A stretch of DNA of 64,000 nucleotides. Origin: Ignavibacteriota bacterium (GTDB lineage Bacteria; Bacteroidota; Ignavibacteria; UBA10030). Location of the stretch: assembly GCA_022616555.1 (NCBI GenBank), contig JAKEEG010000091.1, positions 1,016 to 65,015 on the forward strand. The letters run 5' to 3'. The translations under genes and the position numbers were made by a program. Under the pieces are notes generated by a model. The model ran no database searches and was not told the DNA's origin. It saw only the letters and a list, made by a program, of their open reading frames with translations. Shown in pieces: positions 38,035-47,621 of the stretch (position 1 is its first letter; each line of letters starts with the position of its first letter).

Positions 38035-38838
38035 TTAGGCGGGAGAAAGACGTTGCATAATATCTGTTGCAAACTCAATGTTTAGCTGACCGAGTGAAAA
38101 AGTAATCGGGTTATCCTTCTTTCGTAGTCGCGGTTCAGGCATTTGATCATATGTCCGTCCGTCAAGCACTCTCCCCGTCGCCTTTTTATTTAAACCGCCC
38201 CACTGCTTAAAGAAGAATTTTACTTTATGCCCTTTGCATAGCCCTCTGATTTGACGAACCCACTCTGGTTTTATCGGACGTGCATGAGGTCCCGATTCTC
38301 CACCAACAATGACCCAGTCAATTCCTTCAAGCGGCAAGTACGGTATTGGGGCTATCAACGGCTCGACAGATAAGAACCTCACAGCAGCAGGAACTTTAGC
38401 TAGTTGCTGAACGCGAAAAACATACTCAGGCGATTCTACACTTACCCCCATCCACACATTTTCAGGCCAAGGTAACCTCGATGAAATCTCAAGCAAACGA
38501 TCAGACCGCTTTGTAAGGATTTGAAACGTGTGCCAGTGAGCTTTCTGCATAGTAGCAAATACCTGAGCGATAAAAAACTCAGGCACCTCTTTGTGGAACA
38601 GGTCGCTCATGGAGTTAACAAAAATGACCTTCGGTTCTTTCCAACGAAGTGGCAAGCTGACAAGGTCGTGGTGGAGCGTTACTTCAAAGCCGTTACGATA
38701 GCGATACGAGCCCATCGCTTTCAAACGCTCCGCCATACGCTCCGCGTAGCAATGCTTGCAACCCGGACTAACTTTATCACACCCTGTTACCGGGTTCCAC
38801 GTCGCTTCAGTCCACTCGATTGATGATTGTTGCGCCAT
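38035..38838 (-). CDS. DUF5131 (phage Gp37/Gp68 family) three-Cys-motif protein
   Basis: N-terminal [27 protein letters not shown], a Cx6CxxC three-Cys motif characteristic of PF07505. The gene sits in an AT-shifted islet. Confidence 0.7.
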
Positions 38839-39676
38839 ATTGATTCTTATATTTTTTCACAATATCGTTTCCAATATTCACTGCAGTTCTATTATTGGAA
38901 GCAAGATATAAATGGTACATTGGTGACCGCCTCGAATTTTTCAGTTCGTACGGATTCGACACAAACTTAAATACTTCTTTAAGTCGGCTTTGATAAAGTT
39001 TTGCAGCTTTACCAATAGCATTAACTTCCTTTTCGCTTCTGGTAATATCATTAAACAGAGAGGGTATTTCAACGTAAAAATATTTCTTTACTTCCATTCT
39101 TGATAATCCTAAAAACTTTTCAAGCCGCTCTAACCAAGAGTCAGATATGTCACCATCGGTTTCTAATAGACGATTTACCCCTAACCCAGTAGGAACTAAA
39201 ACCCACAGATCCACTGGCAATTCTCTTAGCGATTCAATCGCGTTCCATTCTAACTGCATGCCACAAGGGTCGATATAAGCTAAAGTCCTATAGTGCGCGT
39301 TCTCCTTTTTTGACAGGAATTTTGATAAATCAAGTATTTTTTTATTACAATCTCCAGACACTGTATAAATTTCTTTTTCGGGAAAAGCGTCTTTAGTATT
39401 TTCTTTAAGAAGTTTAAAAGTCTTTGGATCTTTTTCAACGAAGTAATAGACATCAAAAGGTTTAGGATGACTAATTTCGAGTATTCTTCTGGCGGCTCCA
39501 ATGGTTACGTCAATTCCAAATTTGCTATCCTTAACAATAAAACCCGAACCTGCGAATCCGTCAAAGTACAATGTCTTAAAATACTTCCGTGTATTCATTA
39601 TCGTTAAGTAAGCATTCGCGTACTCAACAAGTATTTTAATTTTTATTTTTGTCCAGTTTCCTCCGAATTGCTTCAT
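38807..39676 (-). CDS. TcmP-like (three-Cys-motif partner protein) candidate; uncharacterised
   Basis: 289 aa, very AT-rich, directly upstream of and overlapping the DUF5131 gene. It contains FDGFAGSG (a SAM-MTase motif-I-like sequence) and IDPCG. The partner-family assignment is recalled from memory and was not searched. Confidence 0.5.
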
Positions 39677-40487: not shown

Positions 40488-41360
40488 TTACAACACCGTA
40501 TAACTCACGCCAAACGCCAGCGTTTCCTTCACCTGTGTGCGCGGGTTTACTTTTTTATCGTTAATCACCTGTGCGTTCACCTTCACAATGAAGTATTTGC
40601 TCACCTGCACCGCCAGAGTATTATCGCTCCTGAGCGAAAAATCGCGGTATCGCTTGAACGGCGAGAAGAGCTCGATCTTCGACGTAAACAACACTTGCTC
40701 TTCGATTTTCCATTCGACCTCGGTAATCGATTCCAAGCCGCCGTCGGTTTTAATGCGCTCGACAACCGTTGTCGCTGGGTCGTCCGCATAGCCGACGAAT
40801 TTTGAAGTGATAATCTCGCGCAGCGCAGCGCCAAGCCGCGTCTTGACTTGAGGAATGGGCTGGTAGCCGATGCCGATACTTTGCGTCAGGTACGCCGGGT
40901 CGAAGAATTTCGAAACGACCGTTTCATTTCCCGCGGCGTCGTACTGCACGCCTTTGGTGAACTGCGTTTTCATTGTCGCTCCGGCATAGGGGTTTACGTG
41001 CAATCCAAATTTATAGGTAAAGACCGATTGCAAGTCGATCTTGTCATCCGTCTTTCGAAGTCCCTGACCGCTTAAACGCGTCTGACCGAACGCAAGCTTG
41101 TAGGTGTGCGCCCAGTTCAATTTGGAAACATCCAATTCCGTTTTGCCGTCTGCGGAGACGGCGTAGGCGAGCGCGTTTTGTCCGCCCTGCGCCCAGTTGG
41201 TGTGGGAGACCTGCGTGAAGGTCAACGCTCCGACGAGGCTGTGCTTCCACGGACCCGGCGGCAATGGAAGCGGAGCGGCCGTGTCGGGCTTCGTTTCTTG
41301 AAATGCGTAGAGCGGAATGAAAAAAAATAGCGACAGTACAACAACTATAGACTTCTTCAT
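40488..41360 (-). CDS. Secreted beta-barrel protein (DUF3078-like)
   Basis: A signal peptide (MKKSIVVVLSLFFFIPLYA) followed by an alternating hydrophobic beta-strand pattern and an NWAQGG motif. Confidence 0.5.
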   Translation of the reverse strand: MKKSIVVVLSLFFFIPLYAFQETKPDTAAPLPLPPGPWKHSLVGALTFTQVSHTNWAQGGQNALAYAVSADGKTELDVSKLNWAHTYKLAFGQTRLSGQGLRKTDDKIDLQSVFTYKFGLHVNPYAGATMKTQFTKGVQYDAAGNETVVSKFFDPAYLTQSIGIGYQPIPQVKTRLGAALREIITSKFVGYADDPATTVVERIKTDGGLESITEVEWKIEEQVLFTSKIELFSPFKRYRDFSLRSDNTLAVQVSKYFIVKVNAQVINDKKVNPRTQVKETLAFGVSYTVL

Positions 41361-41369
41361 AGTATCCCC

Positions 41370-42572
41370 CTATTTAAGAATAGCAATCACTTCTTCCTGC
41401 ATCGGTTCGCCAGTGACGATCACTTCGCGGTTGGCGGAGATAAACACGTCGATCTCGCTGCGCACGCCGAATTTTCCCGGGAGGTACACGCCCGGTTCAA
41501 TGGAGAACGACGTCATAAGAATAACCTTCCGCTCGTCACGTGTTTCCAAATTATCCATGTTCGCGCCGTTGCCATGGATTTCCTCGCCGATGGAATGTCC
41601 CGTGCGATGTACAAAATACTCGCCATAGCCCTTGGATTGAATATATTCCCGCGCTGCATCATCTACCTGATAGCCGTAAATCTCTTTCCCCACTTTAAAC
41701 GATGAACGCACAAAATTCAGGGCGGAGTCGCGGCCGCCTCTCACAACGTCGAATATCAGCTTGTAGTCATCCGGCACACTCGCACCGACAAAGCCCGTCC
41801 AAGTGATATCCGCGTACACTGAGTGGGGCTTGTCCTTCTTTGCCCATAAATCGATCAGCACGAAGTCCCCTTCATGGATTGGACTGTGCACATCTTTCGT
41901 CGGTTCATAATGCGGGTTAGCGCTGTTGGCGTTGACTGAGCAGTTCGGGTCGCTGTCAGTTTTAATGCCACGACGTTTGAATTCGTCCAACATAAACTGC
42001 TGAACGTCGTACTCCGTCAACGCCCGTTTGGAGCGAATTTGTTCCCTGATGAACCCAAACGTCAGGTCGACGATCTGGCGTAAATGTTTTGCCGTCTCGA
42101 AATTATCCCGCGCCTGCTCGTCCGTCCACCGCGCTTCAAAGCGCTGGACGAGGTTCATCGATGAAACAACTTCAACACCAGCTTCCCGCACGAGTTCTAT
42201 AGTTCCTCCATCAACATTAGAGACATACGGAATGGCGTTTCGCTGGGAGTATTCCATCGCAACCCGCTTGGCTCCATTGAGGATGGTCTTTAGTCCATCC
42301 TCCAACGATTTCCAACTCAAATACACCTGTTTCTTACCGGGCAGGGCGTCAAGATTCCACTGCTCGATATTATGGACGAGCTTCTTCGGTTCGCCTTTAG
42401 CGGGAATAAAATAAAAATACCGGCGTGTTTGCAGAATATGTTCCGGCAAAGCCAGCACGCGTGTGGCAAAGACGTTCGAGCCGCGAAAATTATACAACAG
42501 CCAGCCGTCAATTTTCTCTTCTTGCAGGGCTTGCTGGATTTCCTGGATTTTTTGCGTGTAATCTTGGGGCAT
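41370..42572 (-). CDS. M24-family metallopeptidase (Xaa-Pro aminopeptidase / creatinase-like)
   Basis: The C-terminal pita-bread domain carries HRTGHSIG and the EPG…E metal ligands. Confidence 0.85.
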   Translation of the reverse strand: MPQDYTQKIQEIQQALQEEKIDGWLLYNFRGSNVFATRVLALPEHILQTRRYFYFIPAKGEPKKLVHNIEQWNLDALPGKKQVYLSWKSLEDGLKTILNGAKRVAMEYSQRNAIPYVSNVDGGTIELVREAGVEVVSSMNLVQRFEARWTDEQARDNFETAKHLRQIVDLTFGFIREQIRSKRALTEYDVQQFMLDEFKRRGIKTDSDPNCSVNANSANPHYEPTKDVHSPIHEGDFVLIDLWAKKDKPHSVYADITWTGFVGASVPDDYKLIFDVVRGGRDSALNFVRSSFKVGKEIYGYQVDDAAREYIQSKGYGEYFVHRTGHSIGEEIHGNGANMDNLETRDERKVILMTSFSIEPGVYLPGKFGVRSEIDVFISANREVIVTGEPMQEEVIAILK

Positions 42573-42679: not shown

Positions 42680-42790
42680 AAAAAATAATGGCACGGATTT
42701 CCCCTTCTTACTAATCGCAATATACGCAACAAAAATAAAAAAGCCCGCAACGTTGTGCGCCGCTGGCTTGGTGTGCGGTTCAGTAAAGCC

Positions 42791-43960
42791 TCATTTCCCT
42801 ACCAGCTCGATTTCGTGTTCTACTTCATGCTCAGTGCGCTTTGGCACGTAGGCTTTTTTCTTCTGGCCGTTGCGCTTGCGCATGTATTTCTCTTCCGGGA
42901 CTGGTAATTCCGGCTCGGTCTCTGGCACATCGGGATAGGTATAGACTTCGTACTTGAAATTACGGAGCAGAATATCGTTCCCGTTCCTGCCCAGGACATA
43001 CTGCGGCAGGAGGGGTATTTTCCCTCCCCCACCCGGAGCGTCAATGACAAAATACGGCACGGCAAGTCCGGATGTATGTCCGCGCAGCTTGTCCATAATC
43101 TCCAGGCCAACACGCACCGGCGTGCGGAAATAATTCGTGCCTTTCGTAATGTCCGCCTGATATATATAGTACGGACGCACGCGCATTTTGAGAAGCTTGC
43201 GGTGAAGCTCCAGCATGACATCCGGGTCGTCGTTGACACCCTTCATCAACACAGCCTGGTTGCCGACTGGACAGCCCGCGTCGGCGAGCATCGCGCAGGC
43301 GCGTTCGGCTTCCGGCGTGCACTCCCACGGGTGGTTAAAATGCGTGTTAACATAAATAGGATGATACTTTTTGATCATCTTGCACAGCTTGGCTGTAATG
43401 CGCTGGGGAAGCACGCAGGGCATTTTGGTGCCGAGCCGTATGATTTCCACATGCGGGATGGCACGCAAACCGGCGAGAATACGCTCAAGCACATAGTCCG
43501 TCACCATCAGCGGGTCGCCGCCGGAAAGAACAACGTCGCGCACCTCGGGATGCGCAGCAATGTAGTCGATACCGTCCTGAATCCACTTGGAATTGATCTT
43601 ACTCGAATCGCTTACTTTCCGCTTACGAGTGCAGAAGCGGCAATACATGGAGCACTGGCTGGTGACCAAGAACAACACGCGGTCGGGATAGCGATGCGTG
43701 ATGCTCGGCACCGGGCTATCAGCTTCTTCGTTGAGCGGGTCCTCAGGAAAGCCGTCGTCTTCCAATTCTTTGGCGTCGGGAATACACTGCAGCCAGATCG
43801 GGTCGCCGGGGTAGCGAATCAAGCTGAGATAGTACGGATTGATCCGTGTGTGAAACAGCTTGTTCAGTTTTTCTGCGAGGTCCTTATCAAATCCAAATCT
43901 CTCAACTAAATCCTTGCTGCTATCGACGCTCTCCCGCAACAGCTCTTGCCAGAGTTCCAT
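42791..43960 (-). CDS. kamA: Lysine 2,3-aminomutase (radical SAM, PLP-dependent)
   Basis: CSMYCRFCTRK (the CxxxCxxC radical-SAM cluster) plus the KamA-family core; full-length similarity. Confidence 0.9.
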   Translation of the reverse strand: MELWQELLRESVDSSKDLVERFGFDKDLAEKLNKLFHTRINPYYLSLIRYPGDPIWLQCIPDAKELEDDGFPEDPLNEEADSPVPSITHRYPDRVLFLVTSQCSMYCRFCTRKRKVSDSSKINSKWIQDGIDYIAAHPEVRDVVLSGGDPLMVTDYVLERILAGLRAIPHVEIIRLGTKMPCVLPQRITAKLCKMIKKYHPIYVNTHFNHPWECTPEAERACAMLADAGCPVGNQAVLMKGVNDDPDVMLELHRKLLKMRVRPYYIYQADITKGTNYFRTPVRVGLEIMDKLRGHTSGLAVPYFVIDAPGGGGKIPLLPQYVLGRNGNDILLRNFKYEVYTYPDVPETEPELPVPEEKYMRKRNGQKKKAYVPKRTEHEVEHEIELVGK

Positions 43961-44008
43961 ATCGTCAGCCTCTTCCTTCCGTTGTTGATGGATTTACAGC
44001 TTGTAACC

Positions 44009-45109
44009 CTACCTGCTACGTTCGAGCGCATGCTCGACAATCTTGCACACTGTGTCCTCGAACGTCAATCCGTACACCCGCGCGGAGCGCGCAAAGCCCG
44101 CGTCATCGGAGATGTCGGGGTTCGGATTAACTTCGATAACGTACGGCGTAAAATTCTTCGTCAGCCGGATGTCGACGCGCGCATAATCGCGCAATCCTAT
44201 AATTTTAAACGCACGGAGAGCGATCTCCTTCGCCCGCTTCTCGACGTCGGCCGGTATCTTTGCCGGACATACGCCCACCGTGCCGATGAACTCCGGCGAG
44301 CCTTGCATCCACTTCGCGTTGTAGGTAACAATCTTCGGATAATCTTCCGGCAAACCGGAGAAATCGATTTCGGAAATCGGAAGCGCGACCGCGCGCTTGT
44401 TGCCAAGGATACCGACATTGATCTCCCTGCCGTCGATGTATTCTTCAACAAGCGCGGGCTGCTCGTACTCGCTGAAGATATACCGGACACGCTTTCGGAG
44501 CGCCTGCATGTCGTCTACAACCGAATCGTTCTCAATGCCGATGCTAGCATCCTCGCGCGAAGGCTTGACGATGAGAGGAAAGTTCAAATCGAAGTGGTTC
44601 CCATCAAGCTCTCCGATGTTTTGAAACATTGCGGAGCGGGGCGTAAGTAACTTATGCGCTGTGAGGATTTCCTTCACACGCGCTTTCTGCAAACACGTGC
44701 CGAGAGCGAACGCTCCTGCTCCGGTATAAGGAACGCCCATCAGTTCATAAATGCCGGCGACATGCATTTCATGGATAGCCAAGTTACCGACAGACTCGCA
44801 CAGGTTAAAAATCAAATCCGGTTTCTTCAGTTCGAGGAATCGGATAAGCCGCTTGATGTCGCCGTTCATATTAAAGAGCGACGTATTGTAGCCTGCGCCT
44901 TCGAGAACCCGTTGAACATGCTCGCGTTCCTCCAGCACGCCGACTTCGGAGAGGTCAATCGATTCCGGACTTAGCCCGGCTAACAACTGCTCGCGTGTCG
45001 CAAATTCCTCGATCTTCCCATTCTGCGAAACATACTTCCTCACACCGTTCGTTTCAGTCGTCGGCTCATTAAAGATAACCGCGACATGGACTTTTCTTGC
45101 CATCAGCAC
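44009..45109 (-). CDS. ATP-grasp ligase, D-alanine--D-alanine ligase family (non-canonical Ddl paralogue)
   Basis: A pre-ATP-grasp region and an ATP-grasp core (…IVKPSREDASIGI…EEYIDGREINVGILG…). It lacks the canonical Ddl HGxxGEDG motif. Confidence 0.8.
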   Translation of the reverse strand: MLMARKVHVAVIFNEPTTETNGVRKYVSQNGKIEEFATREQLLAGLSPESIDLSEVGVLEEREHVQRVLEGAGYNTSLFNMNGDIKRLIRFLELKKPDLIFNLCESVGNLAIHEMHVAGIYELMGVPYTGAGAFALGTCLQKARVKEILTAHKLLTPRSAMFQNIGELDGNHFDLNFPLIVKPSREDASIGIENDSVVDDMQALRKRVRYIFSEYEQPALVEEYIDGREINVGILGNKRAVALPISEIDFSGLPEDYPKIVTYNAKWMQGSPEFIGTVGVCPAKIPADVEKRAKEIALRAFKIIGLRDYARVDIRLTKNFTPYVIEVNPNPDISDDAGFARSARVYGLTFEDTVCKIVEHALERSR

Positions 45110-45142
45110 CCTCAGATTGTTGTTGGATTCGTGTACACCTGC

Positions 45143-45781
45143 TCAGCTCTTCGCGTATTCTCCTACCGTACGTTCCAACTCGTCAAGCTCATCGATGATC
45201 GCATCTCCAAAATAATACCGCACTTCCTCCCGGACTCCTCTGTAGAGAGTCTCGCCGCTATCCAAACACACAAGCGATTTATCGTCAATTTCCACCGCCG
45301 GAACCAACGCGCCGCCGTCATACGTGAGCGGAAACAAACAGCTAATCATAGGTTTCAGCTCGTGGTAGTCTATTCCCTTCTCTATACTATAGCTATGGAG
45401 CATGCACCCGCGCCCATTTTTATTGAGAAAAATGCAGCCACGTTCGTTGGTTTGTGTACGGGTGCAACTCCCCCCGGGGTACTCCTCCTCTGTCCAAAAT
45501 TCGTCAACGAACCACCGGTCCTTTGGAATACCGGTAAATTGTTCCAAACCGGCGGCATGCTGTTCAATCCGACGCAAATTTTTGATATCGACATCAACGC
45601 CAAATGAACAACACCAGTCGTTGCAGAATGTGCAAGACGAACAATGCGTGAAATACTTGATGCGAAAAATATCCGTCTCAACAGAGCCAATGTTCGGTGT
45701 TCCGTAAATACTTGGATAAACCAGACGCAGTTCCTGAATCATCGGCTCCTTAACGTCCCATTCCGTGCCGCGCCAGAGCAT
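45143..45781 (-). CDS. Cysteine-rich hypothetical protein (CxxCxxCxxxCC motif; YkgJ-type metal-chelating-like)
   Basis: YFTHCSSCTFCNDWCCSFG together with additional Cys/His residues. It is embedded between the two ATP-grasp genes and overlaps the upstream one. Confidence 0.5.
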   Translation of the reverse strand: MLWRGTEWDVKEPMIQELRLVYPSIYGTPNIGSVETDIFRIKYFTHCSSCTFCNDWCCSFGVDVDIKNLRRIEQHAAGLEQFTGIPKDRWFVDEFWTEEEYPGGSCTRTQTNERGCIFLNKNGRGCMLHSYSIEKGIDYHELKPMISCLFPLTYDGGALVPAVEIDDKSLVCLDSGETLYRGVREEVRYYFGDAIIDELDELERTVGEYAKS

Positions 45782-46859
45782 TATCGAGCACGTTATTCAA
45801 CAATTGATTGTAATTGATTCCCACTTTCCTCGCCGCCATCGGAAAACACGAGTGGTCGTCCGGGTTCGGTAAAATACCCGGGAGCGGGTTTAACTCAATA
45901 ATATTCGGTTCGCCCGTTTCATCCAGCCGCACGTCCATACGACACCAATCGCGCACACGCAAGACGGTGTATGCCTGCTTGCATATTTCTTGAATCCGCG
46001 CGTCAAGCGCGGCATCAATATTCGCGGGGCAGTCGTACATGTTAATGGGATGGTCAGGCTGGTCCCACATCCATTTGGCTTCGTAGGAATAAATCGGGTT
46101 CGCACCCGGCGGCAACTTGTCGAGCCTCACTTCCACTACTGGCAGAACCCTCACTGATTCACCATTGCCTAATAACGCGACAGTAAATTCCCTGCCCGAT
46201 AAAAATTTCTCGACAAGCGCCGGTTCATCGTACTGTTCCAGCACGCGCTTGACTTCCCGGTGCAATTCTTCGGGAGTGCGCACGATGGAAGAATTCAGCA
46301 CGCCTTTGCTGGATCCCTCATAGAGCGGTTTTACGACGGCAGGAAACGGAGCCTGGATGCTGTTTAACTCTTCGAGAGACGAAACGACCACAAATGGAGC
46401 CGTGGGAATCTTATAGTGCGAGAGAATTTCTTTGGCGCGCGATTTATCAAGACAGATGCCAAGCGTGACGGGGTCTGAGCCAGTGTAGGGAATACCAAGA
46501 AATTCGAGAAAGGCGGGAACTTGCGCTTCGCGGGATGCTCCACGCAAGCCTTCGGCAATATTGAACACGATATCCGGCCGAAGAGCCGATAGTTTCTGGA
46601 AGGCGTCCTCGTTGGCTTCGATGAGGGTGACAGTGTGCCCTTCTTCCAGTGCTGCTTTGACGGCTTGAATGGTTTCTTCACTATCCCATTCAAGATATGT
46701 ATCGTCTCTCGTTAACTTCGCTTTCACAGGCGCGAGGACCTCTACTGTGTCGTCGGCGCTTTCCTCCCGCACGTGTTCGTTCGTCTCAACTTCGGTGTTA
46801 CCGTTCTTCACATTGTAGACGAGAGCGACATGCAATCGTCGTAACAAGCAGTCGTTCAA
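45750..46859 (-). CDS. ATP-grasp ligase, D-alanine--D-alanine ligase family (second paralogue)
   Basis: Same architecture as 44009–45109 (…VVKPLYEGSSKGV…EKFLSGREFTVALLG…). An acidic N-terminal extension is present. Confidence 0.8.
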   Translation of the reverse strand: MNDCLLRRLHVALVYNVKNGNTEVETNEHVREESADDTVEVLAPVKAKLTRDDTYLEWDSEETIQAVKAALEEGHTVTLIEANEDAFQKLSALRPDIVFNIAEGLRGASREAQVPAFLEFLGIPYTGSDPVTLGICLDKSRAKEILSHYKIPTAPFVVVSSLEELNSIQAPFPAVVKPLYEGSSKGVLNSSIVRTPEELHREVKRVLEQYDEPALVEKFLSGREFTVALLGNGESVRVLPVVEVRLDKLPPGANPIYSYEAKWMWDQPDHPINMYDCPANIDAALDARIQEICKQAYTVLRVRDWCRMDVRLDETGEPNIIELNPLPGILPNPDDHSCFPMAARKVGINYNQLLNNVLDNALARHGMGR

Positions 46860-46881
46860 CCTTTCGTTGGTGAGCGATGTG

Positions 46882-47049
46882 CATCGTTCTGGTGAACGAT
46901 GTTCTGTTCTCGTACGAACGAACAGAAGTACTTGCTACAAATATAACCTTTTTACAGTCTGTGTCAAGCATTTTAGGCGTTCGCGCGCATTTTTTTCGCG
47001 ATCGTACTTGACACGAGTCGCGAAAAGTTTTCGCGTTACGAACAACGCG
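46882..47049. promoter_or_regulatory. Palindrome-dense intergenic region upstream of the ATP-grasp/kamA operon
   Basis: Four inverted repeats sharing CGTACGA/ACGAAC cores: CATCGTTCtggtGAACGATG (46882–46901), TTCTGTTC-TCGTACGAAC-GAACAGAA (46902–46927), TTTTCGCGA…TCGCGAAAA (46993–47026) and CGCGTTacgaacAACGCG (47032–47049). Confidence 0.45.
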
Positions 47050-47129: not shown

Positions 47130-47621
47130 TTAGTTGACGCCGAAGTCCATTCCGCACTTCGGACACGTCGTTGCATCGGGTGGAACGAGCGCTTTGCAGT
47201 TCTCGCAGTAGAAGAACTGATCCTGAGGGTCGGCGGCGCTATCTTCTTGTGCTTCAACGTCTTCGAGCGTTGTTGTTCGTTCCACTCTGGTGTCGTCGTA
47301 TTGCTTTTGAGTGGTAAACCACGCCCTCGCCGCCATGGCGAACGAGAATAGCGAGATGATCCAGCTCTGGATGGAACCTGTCTGAAGCGCCTGATAGAGG
47401 AAGAACCCGGCTACCGCCAGACCAACGACGGTGCTAAAGACCCTCGAAGACGTAACGGGCTGGGAAGGCGAGTCTGATCCGCTTCGGAAGCCGCTCGTGA
47501 GCCGCTCCCACCAGGATTCAGACTTCACATAGCCACAGTGGGGACAAAAGCTCGCCGCTTTGAGGAATGTTTTCCCGCAGCGCGGGCATGTCTGCTCGGC
47601 ATAAAGGTTTTCGCTACTCAC
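47130..47621 (-). CDS. Double zinc-ribbon membrane protein (hypothetical)
   Basis: CPRCG…CPHCG at the N-terminus and CENC…CPKCG at the C-terminus, with one TM helix between them. Confidence 0.5.
   Translation of the reverse strand: MSSENLYAEQTCPRCGKTFLKAASFCPHCGYVKSESWWERLTSGFRSGSDSPSQPVTSSRVFSTVVGLAVAGFFLYQALQTGSIQSWIISLFSFAMAARAWFTTQKQYDDTRVERTTTLEDVEAQEDSAADPQDQFFYCENCKALVPPDATTCPKCGMDFGVN

Follow-up and report, generated by a model that had tools for sequence, protein, structure and literature searches.

A stretch of 64,000 nucleotides of contig JAKEEG010000091.1 from an Ignavibacteriota bacterium (hereafter the window) carries on its minus strand a group of four genes, originally predicted to be an operon that combines ATP-grasp ligases with a lysine 2,3-aminomutase of the KamA family. 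All four open reading frames (ORFs) are present exactly where they had been placed. In the direction of transcription they code for AG-A, an A-type Ddl-fold ATP-grasp ligase (45750-46859; a 369-aa ORF whose likely start, TTG at 46847, yields 365 aa), a Cys-rich DUF3109/Rv0495c-like protein (45143-45781; a 212-aa ORF, 199 aa from its likely start, ATG at 45742), AG-B, a B-type Ddl-fold ATP-grasp ligase (44009-45109; a 366-aa ORF with a likely start ATG at 45103), and KamA, a radical S-adenosylmethionine (SAM)/pyridoxal phosphate (PLP) lysine 2,3-aminomutase of 389 aa that is the predicted beta-lysine synthase (42791-43960). The domain identities first assigned also hold. PF07478 (Dala_Dala_lig_C) matches AG-A with 132 bits and AG-B with 110 bits, while the product of the last gene matches LAM_C and Radical_SAM in Pfam and passes the KamA family model TIGR00238 (298.3 bits for a cut-off of 199.2).

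The layout of the four genes is that of a single transcription unit with its own sigma-70-type promoter-like site. This site, TTGACA-16-TATATT (46940-46967, minus strand), lies ~80-95 nt 5' of AG-A and agrees with the consensus at 11 of 12 positions; when five Ignavibacteria loci are aligned, neither hexamer varies, though the surrounding intergenic DNA has diverged. A GC-rich terminator-like hairpin with a T-run (42747-42763, minus strand), found by a consensus scan alone, is positioned 28 nt past the kamA stop codon. The spacers measure 7 nt between AG-A and the Cys-rich gene, ~35 nt between the latter and AG-B, and 48 nt between AG-B and kamA, a gap too short for a further gene. The 32-bp overlap formerly described for the first two genes is an artefact of taking the start of the longest ORF. 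The start region of the Cys-rich gene reads CGT TAA GGAGCCG ATG, in which an AAGGAG Shine-Dalgarno sequence overlaps the TAA stop codon of AG-A, and the ATG at 45742 agrees with the length of 199-aa homologues and with the gene calls on related loci L166 and L167. These three lines of evidence make it the likely start and leave the 7-nt spacer.

The 5' untranslated region of the operon (46860-46940, minus strand) contains two short hairpins, tctgttcg..cgagaacaga and catcgttc..gaacgatg, that are common to the window and to locus L001 and are not kept in more distant Ignavibacteria loci. Searches for a riboswitch or known RNA upstream of the operon, covering the window and four related loci, gave no match to Rfam families. 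The blank Rfam result and the lack of hairpin conservation led to rejection of a riboswitch.

KamA aligns to the Clostridium subterminale lysine 2,3-aminomutase (LAM; PDB 2A5H) with E = 1e-118. Its residues C103/C107/C110, R112, D270, D307 and K314 correspond to the LAM motif CxxxCxxC and to R134, D293, D330 and K337, and these positions are invariant in 32 KamAs (43-86% identical to the window protein) encoded next to related ligases in the gene module described below. In the 2A5H structure Arg134 binds the alpha-carboxylate, Asp293 and Asp330 the epsilon-ammonium and Lys337 the PLP. Conservation of this lysine pocket argues strongly for free L-lysine as the substrate of KamA and beta-lysine as its product, so that the ligases would act downstream.

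The score of KamA on the AblA-type model TIGR03820 stays below the cut-off (459.6 versus 525.4 bits) and the match stops at model position 364 of 417. This is explained by loss of the Zn-binding features of classical LAM: the Zn-site Cys268 is replaced by Asp, the C-terminal Cys is absent and the C-terminal Zn-binding region is missing. Ignavibacteria have in its place a strongly basic tail, rich in K/R and devoid of Cys, formed by the C-terminal ~45 residues of the protein (42791-42930, minus strand, in the window), e.g. KYMRKRNGQKKKAYVPKR.

The predicted substrate pocket is of the lysine type and is not EpmB-like, contrary to the epmB-type identity that the original prediction had named as a possible refutation. 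KamA scores 231.6 bits on the EpmB model TIGR03821, whose cut-off is 369.3, and seven divergent module KamAs always have an AblA-type best model (428-513 bits) and never EpmB (228-267 versus 369 bits). Glutamate 2,3-aminomutase has Lys/Asn in place of the two Asp of the lysine pocket; both Asp are kept in KamA, which does not pass the corresponding model TIGR04368 (419.7 versus 650 bits). A lysine fermentation cluster (kamA-kamDE-kdd-kce-kal) was rejected on the identity of the neighbours in the window, which are the ligases, RecG, a zinc-ribbon protein, an M24 peptidase and a DUF3078 protein.

AG-A and AG-B are predicted Ddl-fold ligases that are not canonical Ddl, which upholds what had been proposed for them. 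They resemble the Ddl/VanA family in their ATP-grasp catalytic machinery, overall length and three-domain fold, which is not RimK-like, and are 30-34% identical to Escherichia coli DdlB (34% for AG-A). On the Ddl models NF002378 and TIGR01205, with cut-offs of 243 and 245.65 bits, AG-A reaches 193.7 and 159.0 bits and AG-B 146.7 and 125.0 bits. The Ddl signature HGxxGEDG is missing in both, being replaced by EGLRGxSRE in AG-A and by CESVGN..HEM in AG-B. The equivalents of DdlB K97, K144, E180, E187, K215, R255, D257, E270 and N272 do not vary among the 31 A-type and 35 B-type sequences compared; with their ATP, Mg and catalytic residues intact, both ligases look active. The DdlB sequence behind this numbering is provisional over its first 25 residues and was confirmed beyond them.

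The substrate-site motifs of Ddl that were compared are GGxSxE (E15), HGxxGEDG (H63 and E68), the K215-Y216 omega loop and S281-L282. A-type ligases keep the equivalent of E15, with invariant changes of H63 to E and of E68 to R; AG-A also retains the equivalents of S150, K215, R255 and S281. The acceptor pocket of the 35 B-type sequences is remodelled, with S150 changed to A/G, Y216 to W, G276 to D, H280 to D and L282 to G. Across the module ligases Y216 is lost to W, R or E. The A-type and B-type are best described as two ancient and separate orthogroups, common to Ignavibacteria, Rhizomicrobium and a Riflebacteria metagenome-assembled genome (MAG). In the Rhizomicrobium and Riflebacteria loci the first ligase is nearest to AG-A and the second to AG-B.

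B-like ligases are also found on their own. About 18 of these lone proteins (33-43% identity) adjoin a protein of ~340-400 aa with a weak match to Peptidase_Mx (PF15887), in loci L101, L117, L118, L134, L135, L139, L146-L151 and others (e.g. L148, 2091-3302). The pair may be a separate two-gene system.

A metagenome scan anchored on the B-type family returned 80 independently sampled loci. In 28 of them, which show several gene orders, no more than a few kb separate KamA from the B-type ligase, and 19 of these 28 loci also encode a small GNAT acetyltransferase. This co-localisation is far beyond chance. The B-type is the only ligase found in every KamA-linked locus. When KamA and both ligase types occur together, their genes take at least four orders, including A-B-GNAT-KamA, KamA-A-B-GNAT, A-[two-component system]-KamA-B, and B with A-KamA on the opposite strand. 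The module occurs in Ignavibacteriota and Alphaproteobacteria as well as in many metagenomic lineages without an assignment; loci from metagenomes come without taxonomy, and the named hosts of the full module are only MAGs labelled Ignavibacteriota/Bacteroidota and Alphaproteobacteria. The linkage of KamA to two ligases, first noticed in the window, persists in distant lineages and under different gene orders. Relatives within Ignavibacteria have the order RecG - AG-A - AG-B - small GNAT - KamA - M24, and those whose KamA is 88% identical to that of the window keep the GNAT and have no Cys-rich gene.

Clustering of all flanking ORFs of the 28 KamA-bearing loci gave no conserved partner beyond the GNAT. 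Neither a precursor peptide of at least 70 aa nor a transporter or an enzyme for a second substrate is conserved beside the module in these loci, where only a lineage-specific two-component system was found. The module would thus need nothing but lysine, ATP and common metabolites. Its conserved core appears to be KamA plus the two ligases, usually with the GNAT, in a self-contained unit. The module GNATs have ~150 aa and weak best matches to RimI; on the AblB model TIGR03827 they give at best E = 0.0013 (18 bits for a cut-off of 205).

Two variations were observed around this core. In one metagenomic lineage, without GNAT, a PAS histidine kinase, a sigma-54 NtrC-type response regulator and a single receiver are encoded between AG-A and KamA-AG-B (L085, L087, L090, L092 and L093; e.g. 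L093, 4353-8039), and genes for an RlmI-like methyltransferase and AspRS follow downstream of the module. In three alphaproteobacterial-type loci an EamA/DMT-type exporter gene is found directly after the module in convergent orientation (L018, 11075-12100; L044, 3264-4181; L159, 2922-3767; all on the minus strand), a position that favours a small molecule as the product.

The window has a rare variant of the module in which the GNAT is missing and the Cys-rich protein is encoded between the two ligases. A tblastn search with module-type GNATs found none anywhere in the 64 kb. The earlier statement that the usual partners of beta-lysine enzymes are missing is correct for the window, where no AblB, EpmA-like, kamDE or GNAT gene flanks the unit, and does not extend to the module elsewhere, where a GNAT is the usual fourth core gene. 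The order zinc-ribbon gene, AG-A, 199-aa Cys-rich gene, AG-B and KamA, with no GNAT, recurs on L001, L166 and L167, showing that the arrangement is a true variant of this lineage and did not arise from misassembly.

The original prediction listed the Cys-rich gene as one of the four in the unit. A survey of 80 genomic loci anchored on DUF3109 places the gene beside the module in only four: L001, an alphaproteobacterial locus with the order KamA-B-Cys-GNAT, Rhizomicrobium (KamA-A-B-Cys) and Riflebacteria (A-B-GNAT-Cys). One more metagenomic locus of the Rhizomicrobium type carries it in such a position. Chance is an unlikely cause of this adjacency, which is seen at differing positions in three or more lineages, and the protein is best regarded as an occasional, recurrent accessory that does not belong to the core. 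The neighbours of the other 76 DUF3109 genes vary by phylum and have no common theme, and assignment of a function from context was abandoned. They include (among L003-L080) genes for an LMF1-like membrane protein (divergent), a SAM methyltransferase and a YggS-like PLP protein in Myxococcota, and for a Diphthami_syn_2 PP-loop protein (convergent), a KdsB-like protein and CTP synthase in Gemmatimonadota.

The Cys-rich protein has eight invariant cysteines, five in a CxxCxxCxxxCC motif and three further ones. Its family is ~50% identical across Ignavibacteriota, Gemmatimonadota, Myxococcota, Planctomycetota and others, with CxxCxxCxDxCC among the invariant Cys. The protein scores 18.3-18.5 bits on PF03692 (CxxCxxCC), under the gathering cut-off of 23. 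It has no match to PF11307 in profile scans; precomputed annotation lists this family for it and for many homologues, one of which (P0086) scores 34.1 bits for a cut-off of 33.5. None of the NCBIfam models, FliB included, matches significantly, and a confident structural model has no neighbour in the PDB. We know of no DUF3109 member with a known biochemical function. FliB, a flagellin lysine N-methyltransferase, also has eight conserved cysteines and an N-terminal C..C..CC-type motif, which holds the oxygen-sensitive [4Fe-4S] cluster on which its N-methylation of lysine side chains depends (PMC8598068). Rv0495c, from which PF11307 takes its name, is genetically tied to redox balance, as its deletion in Mycobacterium tuberculosis leads to an oxidised cytosol (bioRxiv 10.1101/2023.08.22.554105). 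The Cys-rich protein probably binds a metal or an Fe-S cluster.

We consider that there is a slightly better than even chance that the four genes are an operon representing a variant of a widespread, self-contained module for beta-lysine ligation that would yield a small (pseudo)peptide containing beta-lysine. KamA would first convert free L-lysine to beta-lysine by its radical-SAM/PLP mechanism. The A-type and B-type ligases would then make one amide bond apiece by way of an acyl phosphate, a step suggested by the conserved gene linkage and the intact catalytic residues. Beta-lysine could be the acyl donor, the amine acceptor or both, giving a di- or tri-(pseudo)peptide. Its constant presence with KamA and the extra acidic residues of its acceptor pocket hint that the B-type might be the likelier of the two to handle beta-lysine directly. 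In most lineages the small RimI-like GNAT would acetylate a remaining amine. In the window lineage, where the GNAT is gone, the Cys-rich protein could speculatively act as a redox or cluster partner of the radical-SAM enzyme KamA or, equally speculatively and by analogy to FliB, as an amine-modifying enzyme replacing the lost acetyltransferase. The product might serve as a solute of the cytoplasm, as a nitrogen-rich store or as a metabolite for export.

Several observations weigh against this proposal. The product and its beta-lysine content are predictions from the gene set. The choice of the B-type as beta-lysine ligase from its pocket relies on alignment to one Ddl, and the B-type alignment is unstable near H63. 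The ~35 lone B-like ligases found in other contexts show that the ligase family is not restricted to beta-lysine, and the module-like locus L079 has no KamA within the range retrieved. Most of the sampled metagenomes come from freshwater, soil or sediment, and such habitats speak against a classical salt osmolyte. DUF3109 genes are unrelated to the module in 76 of 80 genomic loci, leaving the role of the Cys-rich protein especially uncertain.

The proposed beta-lysine ligation pathway has parallels in several known systems. One is pyrrolysine synthesis, where the radical-SAM lysine mutase PylB is followed by the Ddl-like ATP-grasp ligase PylC, which joins the isomer to the epsilon-amine of a second lysine; PylB/PylC/PylD and the module would share rearrangement of lysine by a radical-SAM enzyme and amide ligation of the isomeric diamino acid by an ATP-grasp. 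Activation of a beta-amino acid by an ATP-grasp enzyme is found in carnosine synthase. The NAGGN (Ngg/AsnO) and NAAG (NAT8L with RIMKLA/B) systems use a GNAT and ATP-grasp ligases to make small N-acetylated di- or tripeptides from common amino acids, as the module might; their ligases are RimK/cyanophycin-like while those of the module are Ddl-like, and they feature no aminomutase or beta-amino acid. The AblA/AblB pathway produces N-epsilon-acetyl-beta-lysine in methanogens, green sulfur bacteria and Pelobacter (PMC3543383). It employs the same type of lysine 2,3-aminomutase, which most module loci likewise pair with an acetyltransferase. The differences are that the module GNAT is a RimI-like protein of ~150 aa while AblB (TIGR03827) has ~270 aa, that the module adds two ATP-grasp ligases, and that the window has no acetyltransferase and a KamA below the AblA cut-off that lacks the C-terminal Zn-binding region. 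Full-text literature searches, which did not reach the amidoligase survey of Iyer et al. (2009), gave no description of a KamA/ATP-grasp cluster.

A different reading is that the module modifies a macromolecule, the ligases attaching beta-lysine to a protein carboxylate or amine or to a cell-envelope component and the GNAT acetylating the same target, by RimK-, LysX- or TTL-like chemistry or by EpmA-independent beta-lysylation. We regard it as unlikely. It agrees with the housekeeping context and very strong conservation of KamA in Ignavibacteria (83-95% identity across the best 120 clusters), with the weak RimI matches of the GNAT and with the absence, in most loci, of a dedicated transporter or second-substrate biosynthesis gene. 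Against it, no candidate target gene is conserved beside the module, the ligases are Ddl-like and not RimK-like, KamA is AblA-like rather than EpmB-like, and the EamA exporter gene adjoins the alphaproteobacterial modules. The precedent is beta-lysylation of elongation factor P (EF-P) by EpmA/EpmB/EpmC, e.g. Geobacter GSU1752-1754 (PMC5585712), where a KamA-family aminomutase also supplies beta-lysine for an ATP-dependent ligation. There the ligase is a lysyl-tRNA-synthetase paralogue and not an ATP-grasp, and neither efp nor epmA is near any module locus. No efp was found in the window or in 2.0 Mb from 165 related loci, searched with a provisional EF-P sequence; with EpmB scores far under the cut-off, a link to EF-P was rejected. 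An ATP-grasp beta-lysylation independent of EpmA, acting on a translation or ribosomal protein or on the envelope, with subsequent modification of the amine by the GNAT or by a FliB-like Fe-S protein, is similarly improbable.

A little less probable still is that the ligases build an oligo-beta-lysine or a cyanophycin-like branched poly-amino acid, serving as nitrogen-rich storage or as a polycation, which the GNAT would cap and the peptidase recycle. This is partly a sub-case of the (pseudo)peptide proposal. Beta-lysine offers an activatable carboxylate plus free amines, and the two ligases could divide formation of backbone and branches between them, as occurs in cyanophycin synthetase. The sigma-54 NtrC-type two-component system embedded in the module of one lineage and the M24 peptidase gene adjacent in Ignavibacteria also fit. 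Ddl-family enzymes, however, characteristically perform single ligations, no architecture with primer binding or several domains is seen, and the M24 link is confined to Ignavibacteria.

That co-localisation is meaningless, with AG-A or AG-B a housekeeping D-Ala-D-Ala ligase and KamA serving lysine catabolism or N-acetyl-beta-lysine synthesis, is very improbable: the 34% identity of AG-A to DdlB, its retained E15, S150, K215, R255 and S281 equivalents and the name 'D-alanine--D-alanine ligase' given by PGAP to a 75% identical relative are outweighed by scores of both ligases well below the Ddl family cut-offs, by the invariant, family-specific replacement of HGxxGEDG and loss of Y216, by the absence of adjacent kamDE, kdd, kce, kal and ablB, and by the co-occurrence of A, B and KamA in Alphaproteobacteria and other lineages in differing orders, next to KamA and not to cell-wall genes, which is not expected of a peptidoglycan gene.

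The genes around the operon appear to be distinct from it. An M24 (Xaa-Pro-type) metallopeptidase gene (41370-42572, minus strand; PF00557, 126 bits), whose membership in the module is doubtful, starts 218 nt beyond kamA and probably is separate from the transcription unit of four genes. Ignavibacteria loci, including L084/L086, have the M24 gene next after kamA; it does not follow kamA in L083 or in any module locus outside Ignavibacteria. Synteny in Ignavibacteria spans everything from CTP synthase to SprA, and the M24 gene travels with it. The role in product turnover once considered for this peptidase was dropped for want of support beyond this synteny. The terminator-like hairpin separates its gene from kamA. 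On the other side, a gene for a 163-aa protein with two zinc ribbons (47130-47621, minus strand) overlaps the recG stop codon by 4 nt, and only the closest relatives (L001, L164 and L166) also have it between recG and AG-A; it is probably co-transcribed with recG, outside the module.

Two overlapping genes further downstream (38035-39676, minus strand) match the PADLOC candidate defence pair PDC-M41B and PDC-M41A with E ~1e-118 and are found in a patch of low GC content (0.41 versus ~0.51). In relatives the M24 gene is directly followed by LptF/LptG, which makes the PDC-M41-like pair and the DUF3078 gene (40488-41360) look like an insertion. The four operon proteins gave no match to PADLOC defence models except a trivial radical-SAM cross-match of KamA to pVip (E = 5e-4), and a defence function for the operon was set aside on that basis.

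To our knowledge, the fates of beta-lysine are limited to fermentation, N-acetyl-beta-lysine synthesis and EF-P modification, plus antibiotic assembly lines. A fourth route, one that relies on ATP-grasp ligases, seems to be widespread and is very strongly conserved within Ignavibacteria, and the conserved trio of KamA and two ligases probably marks an undescribed compound containing beta-lysine. What is new is the combination, as the enzyme families are familiar ones. The unit of three to four genes is compact and, needing only lysine, ATP and common metabolites, is directly testable. If the proposal is correct, it would provide a function for two large protein groups that at present go under the names 'D-alanine--D-alanine ligase (family)' or 'ATP-grasp domain-containing protein', and possibly the first biochemical context for a Cys-rich protein of the DUF3109/Rv0495c type.

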